Source of the DNA: Acidimicrobiia bacterium
GTDB taxonomy: Bacteria; Actinomycetota; Acidimicrobiia; Spongiisociales; ZC4RG35
Direction: 5' to 3'
Assembly: GCA_036556085.1 (NCBI GenBank)
Contig: DATBKE010000125.1
Location: forward strand, 33,008 to 97,007
DNA length: 64,000 nt
Shown here: piece by piece, positions 2,728 through 18,657 of the stretch
Layout: every line of letters begins with the position of its first letter
How positions within the stretch are numbered: position 1 is the stretch's first letter
Translations under genes and position numbers: made by a program
The notes under the pieces: generated by a model
The model's database searches: none
What the model was told of the DNA's origin: nothing
What the model saw: the letters and a program-made list of their open reading frames with translations, nothing else

Positions 2728-3938
2728 AGGTCTTGATTGCCGGCAGCGGCTTCTCGGGATCGATGGTGGCCCGGGGGCTGGCCCGAAAGTCGGGCGTCGA
2801 AGTGATAATCGTCAACGCCGACAATTTTCTGCTTTTCACTCCCATGCTGGCCGAGGCCGCGGTGGGCGACGTCGATCCCCGCCACATCATCGCTCCAATC
2901 CGCCAGCTCGCCCCTGGCGCCGAATTGGTTCAAGGGATTATCGAGTCCATCGATGCCGAGCGGCGCATGGTCGTCGTCAATCGTCTCTTCGGTGAAGTTA
3001 CCGAGTCCATCAGCGCCGACGTCTTGGTTCTGGCATTGGGTTCGGTCAGCAATACCTACGGGGTGGTGGGAGCCGACCAACACGCCCTCCCCTTCAAGAC
3101 CATCGTCGATGCACTGCGGATCCGAAATCGCATCCTGGCCAAGATGGAGGCCGAGGGGAGCGTGTCGGTGGCTGTGGTCGGAGCCGGATTCTCCGGAGCG
3201 GAGTTGACCGCGGCGCTGGCCGACTTCCTTCGCGAGGTGCATCAGCGCTTCTACCGTGCGGGAGCCCCTCCCCGGGTCACCCTCGTGGATGCGGTCGATC
3301 GGGTCACTCCCGCTCTCACTTCTTCGCTCTCGAGGTCAGCGGCCAGGGCACTCGCCAAGCGCGATGTTCGGCTCGTACTCGGATCTGCAGTGACCGCGGT
3401 GAGCACCGAAGGCGTTCAGCTCCAAAGTGGCGAGTTTGTCGAGGCGGGAACCGTGATCTGGGCGGCGGGGATCAAACCGCATCCCCTCTTGGCTCGAACC
3501 GGGCTTGAGACCAATGGCGACAAGATCCCAGTTGACCGGCATTTTCGCTCGGCACGAGAAGGCGTCTATGCGGTGGGTGACGCCGCCCTCTCGCCCACCG
3601 GTGACGGTGGATTCTCGCCCCCCACCGCCCAGTTCGCCCTCCGTCAGGGGAGGTATCTGGGAAGGAATCTCGATGTCATCCAAACCGGTGGGACCGTGGA
3701 GCCGTTTTCCTACCAAACCAAGGGCGAGCTGGTTTCGCTCGGTCATCGCAATGCTGTCGGGAGGGTGCTGGGGATCCCGGTCTCGGGGCTGATTGGCTGG
3801 TTCCTCTGGCGGAGCTACTACTTGCTGCAATTGCCCACCACTCTGCGCAAGGCCCGTGTAGCCGCCGACTGGACCCTCGACCTCTTCTTCCCCCCCGACA
3901 TCGCCTGGCTCCCCAGCTCCGACCTCGGCCCCCTTTAG
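2724..3938 (+). CDS. ndh: FAD/NAD(P)-binding oxidoreductase, type II NADH dehydrogenase (NDH-2)-like
   Basis: MKVLIAGSGFSG Rossmann start, a second GAGFSG dinucleotide motif, a GDAA motif, and a C-terminal membrane-anchoring segment. ATGA overlap with the upstream ORF. The longer frame from 2394 is an N-terminal artefact. Confidence 0.75.
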   Translation: MKVLIAGSGFSGSMVARGLARKSGVEVIIVNADNFLLFTPMLAEAAVGDVDPRHIIAPIRQLAPGAELVQGIIESIDAERRMVVVNRLFGEVTESISADVLVLALGSVSNTYGVVGADQHALPFKTIVDALRIRNRILAKMEAEGSVSVAVVGAGFSGAELTAALADFLREVHQRFYRAGAPPRVTLVDAVDRVTPALTSSLSRSAARALAKRDVRLVLGSAVTAVSTEGVQLQSGEFVEAGTVIWAAGIKPHPLLARTGLETNGDKIPVDRHFRSAREGVYAVGDAALSPTGDGGFSPPTAQFALRQGRYLGRNLDVIQTGGTVEPFSYQTKGELVSLGHRNAVGRVLGIPVSGLIGWFLWRSYYLLQLPTTLRKARVAADWTLDLFFPPDIAWLPSSDLGPL

Positions 3939-4255: not shown

Positions 4256-5347
4256 ATGGTCCTTCGGGAGCGGTTGCTCGAAGTCGGGAGCCAAGCAGGA
4301 TTGGCGCGGATCGGGTTCAGCTCTGCCGAACCGTTTCCCGAGGTACGCGACGAATTGAAGTTCCGGCGGCAAAGCGGTGCCTCCGGCCGCCTCGGTTTCA
4401 CCTTTAACGATCCCGAGCTCGCCACCACGCCCCGGCTCTCGTTTCCATGGGCGGAGACGATCGTGGTCGGGGCCTATCCATACGCCCCCGCTCGATCATC
4501 ACAGCCGGTTCCGGGAACGACCCGGGTCTCGGCCGCGGCCCGCCCTCCTGGATACGCGCCGATTCGAGAGGCGCTCATGCAGGTGGCGGAGACCCTGACG
4601 AGCGAGGGCTATCGGGCCGAAGTGCTGGTGGACGACAATCGTCTCGTCGACCGGGCGGTGGCGGTTCGAGCCGGGCTCGGCTGGTGGGGGAAGAACACGA
4701 TGGTCCTGGCGCCGGGCCTGGGTCCGTGGTTTCTCCTCGGTTCCGTCGTCACCGACGCCCCCATTGCCCCCGATCAGCCTATGAGTCGAGATTGCGGGAG
4801 CTGCTCGGCGTGCATTCCGGCCTGCCCGACCGGAGCGCTGGTGGCCCCCGGCGTTCTCGACGCCCGCCGTTGCCTGGCCGCTTGGGCCCAGACTCCCGGC
4901 GTCGTGCCGGGGGAGTTCCGAGAAGCGATGGGGGATCGCATTTACGGATGCGATGACTGCCTCGAGGCTTGCCCGCCGGGTCATCGTACGGCAGCAACGT
5001 CGGAGGGGAATCGTTTCCCGATCGATGAGGTTCTGTCCGTTTCCGACCAGAGGTTGCTCGACCTGTTCGGGCACTGGTTCATACCCGACCGCGATCCCCG
5101 GATCATCAGGCGGAACGCATTGATTGCGGCTGGCAACTCGGGTTTGGAGTCTCTCGCCCGGGTGGTCGCCCCCTACGCCGGCCATCCCGATTGGCTGCTC
5201 CGCGTTCACGCCGTCTGGGCCCTGGCTCGCCTGGGCGGCCCGATGGCAGAGGCCGTGATCGCTGATCGAGTGCTGGCTGAGTCAGACCACCGAGTGCGGC
5301 CCGAGCTGGAGACAGCCGCGATGACCGCTCATGCGTCGGCAGGCTGA
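4256..5347 (+). CDS. queG: epoxyqueuosine reductase
   Basis: GWWGKNTMVL motif, two 4Fe-4S ferredoxin Cys clusters (CGSCSACIPACP, CDDCLEACP) and a C-terminal HEAT-like repeat region. Confidence 0.85.
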   Translation: MVLRERLLEVGSQAGLARIGFSSAEPFPEVRDELKFRRQSGASGRLGFTFNDPELATTPRLSFPWAETIVVGAYPYAPARSSQPVPGTTRVSAAARPPGYAPIREALMQVAETLTSEGYRAEVLVDDNRLVDRAVAVRAGLGWWGKNTMVLAPGLGPWFLLGSVVTDAPIAPDQPMSRDCGSCSACIPACPTGALVAPGVLDARRCLAAWAQTPGVVPGEFREAMGDRIYGCDDCLEACPPGHRTAATSEGNRFPIDEVLSVSDQRLLDLFGHWFIPDRDPRIIRRNALIAAGNSGLESLARVVAPYAGHPDWLLRVHAVWALARLGGPMAEAVIADRVLAESDHRVRPELETAAMTAHASAG

Positions 5348-15251: not shown

Positions 15252-16421
15252 GTGGACTTCCGTCGCATCGGCGATCTCCCGCCCTACGTGTTTGGGACGG
15301 TTAACCAGCGCAAGCTCGAGGCCCGGCGGGAGGGGGAGGACATCATCGACCTCGGTTTCGGCAACCCCGACATTCCGAGCGCGGTGAATGTGGTCGACAA
15401 GTTGATCGAGGCCGCCCAGAACCCCCGCAACCACCGATATTCGGTGAGCCGGGGGCTGCCGAATCTGCGCAAGGCGGCGGCCGATCGGTACCAGCGGCGA
15501 TTCGGGGTGTCACTCGATCCTGAGGCTGAGGTCATCGCCACGATCGGAGCCAAAGAGGGCCTGTCGCACCTGCTCTGGGTCCTGGTCGAGCCTGGCGACG
15601 TGGCGGTCGTGCCTGAGCCTTCCTATCCGATCCACATTTACGCCCCCGGGCTGGCGGGAGCCGAAGTTCGCCGCGTTCCGGTGACTGCCGATGAGACCTA
15701 CTTCGAACGGCTGGAGGCAGAAGTTGCTCGCGCTCCAAGTCCGCGCGTGGTCATCTGTGCCTTTCCCCACAACCCCACCACGATCTGTGTCGACCTCGGG
15801 TTTTTTCGCCGACTGGTGGAGATGGCCCATGAGCACGGATTCTTCGTGGTTCACGACTTTGCCTACGCCGACGTTCACTTCGACGGCTACCTGCCACCTT
15901 CGATCCTCGAAGTGGAAGGGGCAAAGGAAGTGGCGGTCGAGCTCTATACGTTGACGAAGGGCCATTCGATGGCCGGCTGGCGGATGGGTTTTTGCGTCGG
16001 CAACCGAGACGCGATCGCAGCCCTGGCCAAGCTCAAGAGCTATCTCGACTATGGCACCTTCCAACCGATTCAAGTTGCCTCGATCATCGCCTTGAACGAG
16101 GGAGACGAATACGTGGCCGAGGTCCGCGAGACGTACGAGAGACGCCGCAACGTGCTCGTCGAAGGTCTCAGCCGCAATGGGTGGAAGGTGGAGAGGCCAT
16201 CGGGGACGATGTTCCTCTGGGCCCCGATACCGGATCCGTATCAGGAGTTGGGCTCGATGGCCTTCACCCTCGACCTGCTCGACCGGGCCAAGGTGGCGGT
16301 CAGTCCCGGGATCGGTTTCGGGCCTAGCGGCGACGGGCATGTGCGTTTCGCATTGGTCGAGAACGAGCACCGCATCTCGCAAGCGGTGCGTGGTATCCGC
16401 AAGGCCCTCGACCGGCTCTAA
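15252..16421 (+). CDS. PLP-dependent aminotransferase, AlaA/AspC class I
   Basis: GTG start. LPPYVFG...GNPD...SKAF-like motifs. 389 aa, full-length class I/II aminotransferase. Confidence 0.85.
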   Translation: MDFRRIGDLPPYVFGTVNQRKLEARREGEDIIDLGFGNPDIPSAVNVVDKLIEAAQNPRNHRYSVSRGLPNLRKAAADRYQRRFGVSLDPEAEVIATIGAKEGLSHLLWVLVEPGDVAVVPEPSYPIHIYAPGLAGAEVRRVPVTADETYFERLEAEVARAPSPRVVICAFPHNPTTICVDLGFFRRLVEMAHEHGFFVVHDFAYADVHFDGYLPPSILEVEGAKEVAVELYTLTKGHSMAGWRMGFCVGNRDAIAALAKLKSYLDYGTFQPIQVASIIALNEGDEYVAEVRETYERRRNVLVEGLSRNGWKVERPSGTMFLWAPIPDPYQELGSMAFTLDLLDRAKVAVSPGIGFGPSGDGHVRFALVENEHRISQAVRGIRKALDRL

Positions 16422-16423
16422 TA

Positions 16424-17609
16424 CTGCGCGGATTTTTCCGCTCCTGAGACGAACAAATCCGCACAGATTCGACCCGCTTCCCTTTCGTGCAGGAAAATTC
16501 GTCTCCCACACGAGAAAATCCGCGCAGCTGGTCACGAACGGGGGGAAGGCGCCGCCGACAGACCCCTTGCTCTCTCCTTGAATTCCTGACACCTTCTTTC
16601 GATGGACCTGGCTGCGATACATGCGTTCGCGGCGGTCAATCACGGTCTGGTGGATCGGCCGACCATCCAGCAGTACGGGTGCTCCGACGAGGCCGTCGCA
16701 GGCTTTGTGGGCGCGGGACATTGGACCCCGATCCACGCCGGCGTTTATCAGATCGGAGTTACACCCCTTACATGGCGGGGGCGGCTCCGAGCGGCGACGC
16801 TGGCCGCCGGGCCCCTGGCTGTCATCTCTCATCGCACCGCTGCTCAGCTGTGGGGGCTGCAGGGAGTCAGCTTTGCGCCGATCGAATTGACAGTCCCAGT
16901 CGGTCACCTTCCGACCCCCGAGAGCGTGATCGTCCATCGAACGCGCCGTCCCATCGAGCAGGGCATTGTCGACGCAATTCCGGTGGTGCCCGTTGAGCGG
17001 GCAATTCTCGACTCTGCTGCCTACGTGCCCATTGCCACAGTCGAGCAGCTCTACGACAGCGGCATCCGCCTGAGATTGACCTGCCCGGAGAAGATGGCGG
17101 AGTGTTTGTATGCCCATGGCAAGAGGGGAGTCAAGGGGCGTTCAAAGGTGCTCGCCATGCTCGACGGCCGACGAACCGGGCCAGCCCTCGGCAGTCCTGT
17201 CGAGACCTTCATCCTGCGCAGGATGCGTTTGGCCGGGATCGAGGAGCCGGAGCGTCAATTCATCCTTGTGTTGGCGGATGGCACCATCGCGGTTCTTGAC
17301 TTCGCTTGGCCCCGGCGGGTCAAAGCGATCGAGATCGACGGATTGGAGGCTCACTCCGGTGCCCGTCAGCTCGAGTTGGACCTGGTGCGTCAAAACCTGA
17401 TCCTCGAGTCAGGATGGCAGCTGCGTCGGTTCTCGGGGCGATTCGTGATGCGAAACCCTGGTTTGGTTATCCAAGAGATTGCCCGCTTTCTCGCTGCCTG
17501 ATCTCTGCGCGGATAAATCCGTATCCGGCACGGAAAAACCTGCACAGCAGCCACCCCAGGTGAGTTCTGTGCGGAAAAGTTCGTGGCTGGCACGGAAAAA
17601 TCCGCGCAG
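16424..17609. mobile_element. 1,186-bp insertion-like segment bounded by perfect 16-bp terminal inverted repeats (CTGCGCGGATTTTTCC), carrying one DUF559/AbiEi-type ORF; REP13E12-like
   Basis: 16424-16439 is the exact reverse complement of 17594-17609 (19/21 over the extended ends). Motif variants repeat mirror-symmetrically at both ends. The segment fills the junction between the aminotransferase stop (+3 bp) and the ltaE start (-22 bp). Confidence 0.55.
16602..17501 (+). CDS. DUF559 (Vsr-like endonuclease fold) protein with N-terminal AbiEi_4-like domain
   Basis: 299 aa. The N-terminus ([16 protein letters not shown]...[14 protein letters not shown]...[12 protein letters not shown]) is AbiEi-like. 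The C-terminus (DFAWP...[36 protein letters not shown]) is DUF559-like, as in the mycobacterial REP13E12 ORFs. Confidence 0.7.
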
Positions 17610-17631
17610 AGGGTTGAACTACCCTCGGGCC

Positions 17632-18657
17632 ATGGCATTTTCAGACGGGAGCGCCGACTTTCGCTCCGACACCGTTACCCGACCGACCGAGGAGATGCGC
17701 CGGGCGATGGCGGAGGCCGAGGTGGGAGACGATGTTTATCACGACGACCCCACCGTCAACGCCCTCGAGGAGGAAGCGGCAGCGGTAGTCGGGAAGGAAG
17801 CAGCGGTCTTCATGCCGACGGGGACCATGGGAAACCAGATCGCGGTGATGCTGCAGACCAAGCCCGGCGACGACGTCCTGGCCGATCCCGGGGTCCATGT
17901 GCGCAACGTCGAGGCCGGGGGGCCGGCGGCGCTCTCGGGAGTCGCCTTTCGTACGGTCGATTCGACTGCTGGACAGGTGACACCGGCCCAGGTCGAGGCG
18001 GCCATAGCCCAGGCCGGGTTCTTTCCCCGCATCAGGCTCATGATCTGGGAGAACACCCACAATCTCTCCGGTGGAAGAGTCGTGCCTCACGAATTGATGG
18101 CGGAGACCAGCGCCACGGCTCGCCGCCACGGCCTGGCGATTCATCTCGACGGGGCCCGGCTCTTCAACGCCGTGGTCGCCTCGGGCGTTTCCGCCGACTC
18201 ATTTGCCGCCACGGCCGACACCGTCCAGTTCTGCTTTTCCAAGGGCCTGGGGGCCCCTGTGGGCTCCGTGCTCTGCGGGACCGAGGAGATGATGGGGGAG
18301 GCTCGCTATCTTCGCAAGCGCATGGGCGGGGGCATGCGCCAGGCGGGCGTGATCGCCGCCGCCGCTCGAATCGCCCTCCGGGATCGGGATCGACTCAAGG
18401 AAGACCATGAGCTCGCCCACTACCTGGCCGAGAGCCTCGACCGCGCCCATTCAGGCCTGGTCGATGTCGCCCAGGTGGAAACCAACATGTGCCAGATCCA
18501 ACCTGAGCGCCTTCCGCGGCCTCTTCCCGAGTGGCGAGAGGCCTTGTCAACCCAAGGAATCAAGATCAACCCCGCGTTTGGCGGCATCCTCCGTCTGGTG
18601 ACCCACCGCGACGTCAACCGCGACGACGTCGACCGCCTGGTTCGCAGCCTCGGCTGA
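17632..18657 (+). CDS. ltaE: low-specificity L-threonine aldolase
   Basis: [10 protein letters not shown], the PLP-lysine region [13 protein letters not shown], and the [12 protein letters not shown] motif. The longer frame from 17479 is an artefact. Confidence 0.85.

Follow-up and report, generated by a model that had tools for sequence, protein, structure and literature searches.

The window analysed in this work is a stretch of 64,000 nucleotides (nt) from an Acidimicrobiia bacterium (assembly GCA_036556085.1, contig DATBKE010000125.1, positions 33,008 to 97,007). Between an aminotransferase gene and the threonine aldolase gene ltaE it contains a cassette, made up of one gene and of palindromic units on both sides of it, which is the subject of this report. 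The aminotransferase open reading frame (ORF) spans positions 15252-16421, with its stop codon at 16419-16421, and ltaE spans 17632-18657; in Pfam they matched Aminotran_1_2 (1.6e-54) and Beta_elim_lyase (7.8e-94), respectively. ltaE is the next gene 3' of the cassette, and the neighbourhood comprises the aminotransferase, ltaE and fatty-acid synthesis genes. The guanine plus cytosine content of the region of the cassette ORF is the same as that of its surroundings. The coordinates of the cassette features are provided in Table 1, in which R1 designates the covariance model used to locate the palindromic units.

Table 1. Features of the cassette lying between the aminotransferase gene and ltaE (positions are those of the window)
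Feature	Position	Strand	Description
Whole cassette	16424..17609	+	1,186 bp; between aminotransferase stop (16421) and ltaE start (17632); empty sites in relatives
Unit A	16424..16466	.	43-nt imperfect palindrome CTGCGCGGATTTTTCCG-N9-CGAACAAATCCGCACAG; left terminus; R1 49.9 bits, E = 2e-12; DNA fold z = -2.85
Unit B	16485..16527	.	Degenerate second upstream unit; right half-site CGAGAAAATCCGCGCAG (half-site pattern match 16510-16527)
Promoter-like block	16563..16595	+	CCCCTTGCTC 16563-16572 (-35-like TTGCTC), 17-nt spacer, TGA-CACCTT 16587-16595
ORF, 299 aa	16602..17501	+	Predicted AbiEi-like two-domain DNA-binding module fused to Vsr/DUF559-type endonuclease; only long ORF inside the cassette
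Residues 1-175	16602..17126	+	Predicted winged-helix N-terminal domain and AbiEi C-terminal-like domain
Residues 190-299	17169..17498	+	Predicted Vsr-like PD-(D/E)xK nuclease domain; invariant D233, E244, D246, H251
Unit C	17505..17547	.	First downstream unit, starts 4 nt past stop codon; R1 37 bits, E = 3e-8
Unit D	17567..17609	.	Second downstream unit, right terminus; R1 38.7 bits, E = 8e-9; unit fold z = -4.1

An initial annotation, made from the sequence alone, had described the segment as bounded by perfect inverted repeats of 16 base pairs (bp). These are exact: CTGCGCGGATTTTTCC at 16424-16439 has its exact reverse complement at 17594-17609. The distances given for them also agreed with the sequence, as the left copy starts at the third base beyond the aminotransferase stop (16421) and the ATG of ltaE (17632) lies 22 nt past the end of the right copy. 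The inverted pair extends to 19/21 positions, as had been noted, and the repeat search carried it to 44 nt at 82%. Allowing up to three mismatches, the 16-mer gave seven matches in the 64-kb window versus 0.88 expected, a number reached by none of 100 shuffles, and six of the seven fell in the cassette locus. The repeat is therefore real, but it is not a simple terminal pair, being instead the outermost half-site of four imperfect palindromes of about 43 nt. These comprise eight half-sites of the form CTG[C/T]GCGGA-(A/T)4-TCCG, with two units located 5' (16424-16527) and two 3' (17505-17609) of the ORF. The best pairing partner of the right half-site of unit B, CGAGAAAATCCGCGCAG, is the left arm of unit A; R1 did not detect unit B at E <= 1, and its counterpart in the related locus L005 was found at E = 0.2. 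Taken in pairs, units A and B form a palindrome of 104 nt (single-stranded DNA fold of -25.7 kcal/mol, z = -6.2) and units C and D one of 105 nt (-30.4 kcal/mol, z = -6.4).

It was also observed that in the clade of the window the units are asymmetric at position 4/40, the first unit reading CTGCG...CACAG and the second C(T)GTG...CGCAG, and therefore the two-unit module is a better palindrome than either single unit. A T:G mismatch at position 4/40 of an extruded hairpin was considered as a Vsr-like target and dropped, given that the asymmetry vanishes in the two-unit module; the perfect 4/40 pair of other subfamilies also ruled it out.

The loci compared with the window were taken from species-representative genomes (28) and JGI metagenomes (15), with several more found by exact look-up; nearly all of them are from Acidimicrobiia. 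The related sequences were throughout metagenome-assembled genomes (MAGs) or metagenome contigs. The structure of the cassette is not an assembly artefact, because it was found in independent NCBI, ENA, JGI and Logan assemblies.

The state of the aminotransferase/ltaE site was read from contigs of relatives collected by an LtaE homologue search. The site was filled in L001/L005, with a LtaE 95% identical to that of the window, in L024, in which the cassette gene (2956-3853) is a frameshifted pseudogene, and in L034, whose stretches that were read are identical to the window. It was empty in L033 (LtaE 78%), in which 21 bp separate the aminotransferase stop from the ltaE ATG and no unit is present, in L039/L040 (71%), in which the two genes overlap by 4 bp, and in L041 (70%), in which they are 13 bp apart. 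The suggestion that the genes would adjoin as in an operon in the absence of the segment was thus borne out, as they overlap or are 13-21 bp apart in L033 and L039-L041. In silico removal of 16424-17609 left a 24-nt spacer, colinear with the empty site of L033. Because the relatives have abutting or overlapping aminotransferase and ltaE genes, 16424-17609 is a discrete segment inserted into the ancestral operon junction, and its presence is polymorphic among them. The outer flanks of the cassette (...CTAATA versus AGGGTT...) were compared and no target-site duplication was found at its ends, in agreement with the initial annotation.

Other relatives showed inserts of different kinds at the same junction. 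L035/L036 (LtaE 74%) have a 74-bp spacer with a single 42-nt palindrome, CTGCGTAA...TTACGCAG (L035 3934-3975, also in L036), in the place occupied by the cassette in the window. It shows unit termini and unit length, and its right flank is homologous to window positions 17610-17631. Covariance model R1 did not detect it, and for this reason it is kept as a mere candidate for a solo unit, of unproven homology. L038 (LtaE 71%) carries an unrelated 118-bp spacer (2883-3000) whose palindromes are different (CCAGTCTCC...GGGGACTGG) and which has a 29-nt hairpin immediately 5' of the ATG. The junction seems prone to gaining structured inserts.

Some further observations were made at this site. The contig L037, with an 88%-identical ltaE, begins 110 nt upstream of this gene, and this sequence (1-110) is unlike the units of the window. 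The LtaE of L034 (353 aa; protein P0125) was reported as only 80% identical to that of the window in spite of the identical stretches, which may reflect another called start or divergence near the contig end. In L005 (9814-9833, corresponding to L001 4814-4833) 10 nt of the left terminus are present as an additional partial copy (CTGCGCGGCT|CTGCGCGGATTTTT), absent from the window. It constitutes a small duplication exactly at the end of the cassette, which is there a 95%-identical orthologue.

The protein of 299 amino acids (aa) encoded by the cassette matched the AbiEi models of PADLOC over residues 5-166 (E = 7e-23), Pfam DUF559 over residues 230-297 with 21.6 bits, just over the cut-off of 20.6, and Pfam MTES_1575 REase over residues 238-296 with 25.6 bits, under the cut-off of 38.2. 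MTES_1575 and DUF559 were the only Pfam matches at E <= 0.01, with neither DUF222 nor HNH among them; NCBIfam gave no match, and sequence searches of the PDB gave nothing, whether the query was the family profile or only the nuclease domain. The AlphaFold2 model had a predicted local distance difference test (pLDDT) score of 91.9. The fold search returned AbiEi and Vsr, the N-terminal 175 residues corresponding to a full AbiEi fold including the antitoxin C-terminal domain. No recognised transposase domain or fold was found in the ORF by Pfam, NCBIfam or the fold search. Residues D233, E244, D246 and H251 were invariant in 48 sequences, down to 36% identity, at the positions of the strands and helix that carry the catalytic residues in PD-(D/E)xK/Vsr enzymes. 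The initial annotation had assigned to the sole ORF an AbiEi-like N-terminus and a DUF559-like C-terminus, and both assignments were upheld by PADLOC, Pfam and the fold search. In the modelled protein a complete antitoxin/repressor fold of the AbiEi type is followed by a fused endonuclease domain of the Vsr/DUF559 type. With respect to possible partners, no DUF1814 (AbiEii) was found in the cassette or among the neighbouring genes, and no methyltransferase gene lies next to the cassette ORF in the window, L001, L003 or L004. The ratio of nonsynonymous to synonymous divergence (dN/dS) was 0.087 relative to the 95%-identical orthologue of L005; this low value shows that the ORF is under purifying selection, as a functional gene rather than debris.

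Proteins combining AbiEi and DUF559 are widespread. An exhaustive search of 50%-identity clusters yielded 15,529 representatives at a threshold of E <= 1e-3, and 6,187 when it was lowered to E <= 1e-10; most of the matches were full-length, of about 300 aa. These proteins are currently annotated only as "DUF559 domain-containing protein" or "AbiEi family antitoxin domain-containing protein", and the literature search returned no paper that describes them. Homologues of the cassette protein were found neither in viral contigs nor in phage records, and plasmids contained none at E <= 1e-8; at E <= 1e-3 there was a single 25%-identical match from Nonomuraea (L059), which does not show clear flanking palindromes.

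These results bear on the label "REP13E12-like" of the initial annotation, which had also stated that REP13E12 repeats encode a DUF559 protein and had linked the segment to phage attB sites. REP13E12 elements occur as several highly similar copies of about 1.4 kb per genome, encode DUF222, usually together with HNH, and act as attB of phiRv1-type prophages. The cassette resembles them loosely, as a unit of about 1.2 kb with one nuclease-type gene and several diverged copies per genome. However, its protein has an AbiEi and Vsr fold, the 64-kb window has a single copy of the cassette, protein identity between paralogues of one MAG is only 56-63%, and at the DNA level the copies are not near-identical repeats. 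What defines the 13E12 repeat family is Pfam DUF222 (PF02720), and not DUF559 (PMC13157036). The assignment must be corrected in this sense, and membership of the family is refuted by the absence of a DUF222 match in the Pfam scan at E <= 0.01. Regarding phages, no viral or phage-record relative was found in the records searched and no link to an integrase turned up, no attB-directed integrase search having been made. It is hardly credible that the cassette is a REP13E12-like repeat serving as a phage attB site.

The gene and its units are linked across the family in Acidimicrobiia. Nearly every locus with enough flanking sequence has one or two units upstream of the gene (about -50 to -210 from the start codon) and downstream of it (1-20 nt past the stop codon). 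The two-sided arrangement holds down to about 37% protein identity, so that homologues at 37-95% identity in different contexts carry units of their own. Two pseudogenes with frameshifts or internal stops, L024 2956-3853 and L029 10010-10593, also still show units on both sides. Two distant homologues (27-29% identity) from other classes of Actinomycetota, L031 and L032, have private palindromic modules on both sides of the gene and nowhere else in 20 kb. The first bases of the units are CTG[T/C]G and the last ones C[A/G]CAG, the units measure 43 nt (range 41 to 45), and the termini C1 T2 G3 G5 / C39 C41 A42 G43 are invariant or nearly so. The arm sequences vary by subfamily (CTGCGCGGATTTT, CTGTGAAGGT, CTGTGAGGATTT, CTGTGTCGAT, CTGTGAACGG) and the palindrome is kept. 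In a gap-free alignment of 19 units, 87% of the cells were paired and double changes were present in 16 of the 20 pairs; since the seed units had been selected for palindromy of their outer 14 nt, the counts of the outer pairs are inflated, while pairs 15-20 were unselected. None of 500 shuffles reached the observed score, and pairing fell to 33-49% when the partner was shifted by one to three columns.

Such covariation of the stems could also be expected if the palindromes were only RNA-level elements, that is, terminators, insulators or mRNA-stabilising hairpins carried along with a horizontally moved gene and not recognised by any protein. The two-unit modules fold as stable hairpins of -26 to -30 kcal/mol, the downstream units begin 1-20 nt past the stop codon, and solo units are situated between convergent genes, a location in which terminators are expected. 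On the other hand, no Rfam family matched the units, the terminator consensus scan made no call at them and they have no U-tract. In addition, mismatches of the units on the sense strand are balanced (92 G.T versus 79 A.C), and the A/T tract at positions 10-13 is often non-complementary and always A/T-rich. Because of these last two traits, sites bound by protein as duplex DNA are favoured over a hairpin in the sense-strand RNA. Invariant termini, a fixed length of 43 nt, helical phasing and paralogue-specific classes would not be expected of generic terminators either, and we consider an RNA-only role quite improbable.

The distribution of the units was addressed with a strict scan of the outer arms, followed by covariance model R1. 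The strict scan of 532 kb located 25 units, every one of them at <=400 bp from the gene, and the covariance model located about 80 gene-linked units. In 573 kb the model found only three distant ones (L013 12643-12685, L023 1441-1484, shared by L023/L046, and L022 17271-17317), and a further 89 kb of metagenome loci added one more possible solo unit (L056 1313-1355). The total of solo units is 3-5 in about 660 kb of contigs, from which the number per genome is a rough estimate. Pattern, repeat and covariance scans found none in the remaining 62.8 kb of the window. One solo unit sits between a GNAT-like gene and rpoC, and two, of different arm classes and from two genomes, lie beside the 3' end of orthologous TrpB-like genes. 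Solo units are often of another arm class than the cassette of their own locus, and they may represent what is left of lost cassettes, additional binding sites or targets.

It might be argued that the nuclease is a domesticated enzyme that maintains dispersed REPIN-like palindromes, as in REP/RAYT systems, the copies flanking the gene being merely the nearest ones. In this regard, the gene lies between palindrome doublets that fold as one long hairpin, as REPINs flank RAYT genes, and solo units occupy three to five intergenic places, with the same position beside the TrpB-like gene in two genomes. But the 3-5 solo units of the contigs compare with about 80 gene-linked ones, the rest of the window has none, the solo units often differ in arm class from the cassette at the same locus, and the enzyme is not a Y1/HUH transposase. 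A REP/RAYT-like system is therefore, in our opinion, very improbable.

The related Acidimicrobiia loci (about 40) occupy eight or more genomic sites. Site A, between the aminotransferase gene and ltaE, is that of the window, L005, L024 and L034; site B (L004, L008) lies between an AMP-ligase gene and that of tryptophan dioxygenase (TDO); site C (L009-L014) is near rpoC; site D is that of L016-L019 and L025; and site E (L015, L020-L023, L027, L028 and others) lies between a uricase-like gene and a gene of 439 aa. L003, L026 and L029 are at singleton sites. The cassette of L003 (4656 onward) starts 4 nt past an RNase P RNA gene (4277-4651; Rfam RF00010, 284 bits), and the right boundary of this site was placed within 9 nt of the last unit; among its relatives L057 is filled and L058 has a different upstream synteny. 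Most members reside at the same few sites in deeply diverged genomes, the proteins of one site being 46-85% identical and the flanking genes 64-98% (tblastx). Several MAGs have two divergent paralogues at separate sites, and paralogues in one genome carry different unit classes.

Within a locus the two ends of the cassette resemble each other, with a median identity of 0.86 between the best upstream and downstream units. In L003 the upstream and downstream modules are identical (1.00) over about 108 nt including the spacer, which suggests a recent event there; the units of L026 also have an identity of 1.00, and two 43-nt units of L012 differ at the last base only. Orthologous loci at one site with diverged proteins have a unit identity of 0.58-0.79. 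When the window was compared with L005, 126 of the 130 nt of the right non-coding flank were identical, and synonymous divergence (dS) was 0.25 in the cassette gene versus 0.50 and 0.36 in 15252-16421 and 17632-18657. The lower dS of the cassette gene could be due to codon constraint or to a more recent exchange of the cassette between lineages. Because the flank is so similar in spite of a coding dS of 0.25-0.50, the downstream units are either strongly constrained or recently homogenised. At site E the cassette is present in both orientations, flanked in either case by the stop codons of one and the same pair of convergent genes, as in L020 and L022, whose flanking proteins are 67% and 60% identical with their positions swapped. 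Both orientations can be explained because palindromic units are direct and inverted repeats at once and so allow either recombination or insertion at a palindromic target.

Many of these traits would also be found in an autonomous mobile element whose AbiEi-type winged helix-turn-helix (wHTH)/Vsr nuclease bound the palindromic ends and cut at or near the CTG...CAG termini, leading to excision or to break-repair copying into new intergenic sites or solo units, much as a homing endonuclease or a cut-and-paste element would do. The boundaries of the insertion coincide with the outer ends of the units at site A, and within 9 nt at the site of L003. The termini are invariant across subfamilies in which the inner arms vary, the ends of L003, L026 and L012 are identical or almost so, and one site holds both orientations. 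Site A is polymorphic for the presence of the cassette, solo units exist, with a unit-like 42-nt palindrome at the empty site of L035, and there is a similarity to homing endonucleases. However, a hydrolytic PD-(D/E)xK nuclease is by itself unable to join DNA, there is no target-site duplication, and the palindrome of L035 escapes the covariance model. Homologous recombination between the flanking repeats could also give the solo units, the flip and the identical ends. Besides, no near-identical copies at different sites were seen, nor any copy on the plasmids, phages and viral contigs searched, and most copies are fixed at one site through deep divergence. The initial annotation had proposed a discrete mobile or formerly mobile element. 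Its discreteness was confirmed by the empty sites, but current mobility was not, given the lack of near-identical copies at different sites. That such an element is at work here is a possibility that we hold only tentatively, and equally doubtful is the broader proposal that AbiEi-wHTH/Vsr cassettes are an unrecognised class of mobile or self-propagating elements, widespread in Actinomycetota with thousands of sequence clusters, in which the AbiEi-type module would direct the nuclease to the 43-bp palindromic ends of its gene and the nuclease would drive gain, excision leaving solo palindromes, and inversion.

In the clade of the window, a conserved block of the form CCCCTT(G/C)C ... TG(A/G)CA(Y)nTT lies between the upstream units and the ATG and ends 6-10 nt before the start codon (6 nt in the window). 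Its position is kept at four genomic sites (A, B, C and that of L003), and it is nearly invariant between the window and L005. From this conservation we infer that 16563-16595 is a non-canonical promoter, and the mRNA of the cassette would then probably be leaderless or have a very short leader.

The interpretation that we favour, with modest confidence, is that of an autoregulated AbiEi-nuclease cassette, whose protein would bind its own palindromes at both ends and which would occasionally be gained, flipped or collapsed. Two AbiEi monomers bind to paired 23-bp inverted repeats separated by 3 bp, Rv2827c binds two such pairs in tandem within -1 to -131 of its start codon, and both proteins repress their own promoters without binding the sites of each other (PMC7319586). 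The units have the same geometry, with two inverted half-sites of about 20 bp around a 3-nt centre, often in tandem. Their start-to-start spacing is 61-63 nt in the clade of the window and 71-74 nt in that of L020/L021/L047/L053, corresponding to about six and seven helical turns. By analogy, the 43-bp units are most likely the cognate binding sites of the protein itself, with two monomers per unit. The AbiEi module, fused to a nuclease in the place of a separate AbiEii toxin partner, would bind these units. The upstream pair, located just 5' of the promoter-like block, would set expression, probably as autoregulation, and the downstream pair would be a second copy of the site array, delimiting the cassette on that side and probably also terminating or insulating the transcript. 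Sharing palindromic ends, the cassette could behave as one recombination unit, gained as a whole, with ends that evolve in concert, flipped in place and probably sometimes collapsed to a solo unit. The nuclease may act as a toxin or a defence effector that is kept on its own sites, or as an enzyme cutting the ends of the cassette.

It must be noted that several results weigh against this interpretation. The sigma-70 consensus scan found nothing at the promoter-like block, so that the promoter is deduced from conservation only, and 8-35 nt separate the end of the upstream units from the -35-like block, with no overlap, unlike in AbiE and Rv2827c. The covariation of the inner stem exceeds what a protein reading only the outer arms would need, making the recognition of a hairpin or cruciform possible, and the inflated counts of the outer pairs have already been mentioned. 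Two of the four distant homologues, L030 (Myxococcaceae) and L059 (Nonomuraea), have no clear flanking palindromes. Finally, among the collected loci no near-identical cassettes were seen at different sites, and a target-site duplication is lacking; gain may be rare and need not be self-catalysed.

Part of the same evidence would fit an immobile single-gene defence or toxin-antitoxin-like module derived from AbiE, in which the nuclease is the toxic effector and the AbiEi part represses the gene and parks the nuclease on the flanking sites until a trigger such as phage infection. The full AbiEi fold of the N-terminal 175 residues with its antitoxin C-terminal domain, the strong PADLOC matches, strong purifying selection and the long stay at fixed sites are in agreement with it. 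So is the known autoregulation of AbiEi proteins through paired inverted repeats (PMC7319586). Moreover, several divergent paralogues per genome with private unit classes recall modules that do not cross-react. Nevertheless, there is no AbiEii/DUF1814 partner, the aminotransferase/ltaE site is not in a defence-island context, no phage or plasmid association was found in the records searched, and defence alone leaves the 3' copy of the site array unexplained. We thus regard an immobile defence module as unlikely.

The cassette is of interest in several respects. The architecture of AbiEi plus DUF559 in about 300 aa is very common yet uncharacterised, with the 6,187 cluster representatives indicated above, and the anatomy of the cassette gives each protein of the family a predicted DNA target beside its own gene. 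The cassette also clearly illustrates the re-use of an AbiEi module together with a nuclease fused in cis, and provides a candidate new way for a nuclease gene and palindromes to propagate.

When compared with known systems, the cassette shares traits with several of them. It is roughly equal in size to REP13E12, has one nuclease-type gene and several copies per genome and is prone to recombination, but REP13E12 is defined by DUF222, usually with HNH, and the cassette by AbiEi and DUF559. With AbiE and Rv2827c it shares the AbiEi fold, paired half-sites of about 20 bp 3 bp apart and tandem upstream pairs. Unlike AbiE, it lacks a gene for the AbiEii/DUF1814 nucleotidyltransferase and has a Vsr-type nuclease joined in cis instead. 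In addition, the array of sites is present a second time at the 3' end of the gene, the upstream units are just 5' of the presumed promoter and not over it, and the whole cassette shows insertion, deletion and orientation polymorphism. The nuclease fold and the invariant acidic and His residues are those of Vsr/DUF559 endonucleases; because a Dcm methyltransferase partner is absent, in contrast to Vsr repair enzymes, the protein is not a very-short-patch repair enzyme. As a small, selfish-looking intergenic insertion, the cassette is similar to a free-standing homing gene such as that of the Vsr-like homing endonuclease I-Bth0305I, but it lies outside introns, inteins and phages and its DNA-binding part is AbiEi-like.

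Insertion sequences (IS) and miniature inverted-repeat transposable elements (MITE) are also discrete insertions with matching ends, and the cassette resembles them in its 1.2 kb, its conserved CTG...CAG, its filled and empty sites and its two orientations at one site. It differs from them in having no transposase fold, target-site duplication or multiple near-identical copies, and in that its ends are full palindromes with operator-like geometry. With REP/REPIN-RAYT systems it has in common a single gene between palindromic doublets folding as a long hairpin, a cognate class per lineage and a few solo repeats. However, the RAYT enzyme is a Y1 HUH transposase and that of the cassette a PD-(D/E)xK nuclease with a wHTH, and REPs number tens to hundreds per genome, compared with three to five dispersed copies of the unit in about 660 kb. 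If the cassettes were indeed a mobile class, they would represent, beside RAYT/REPIN and classical homing endonucleases, a third route for the joint persistence of a nuclease gene and its cognate palindromes.

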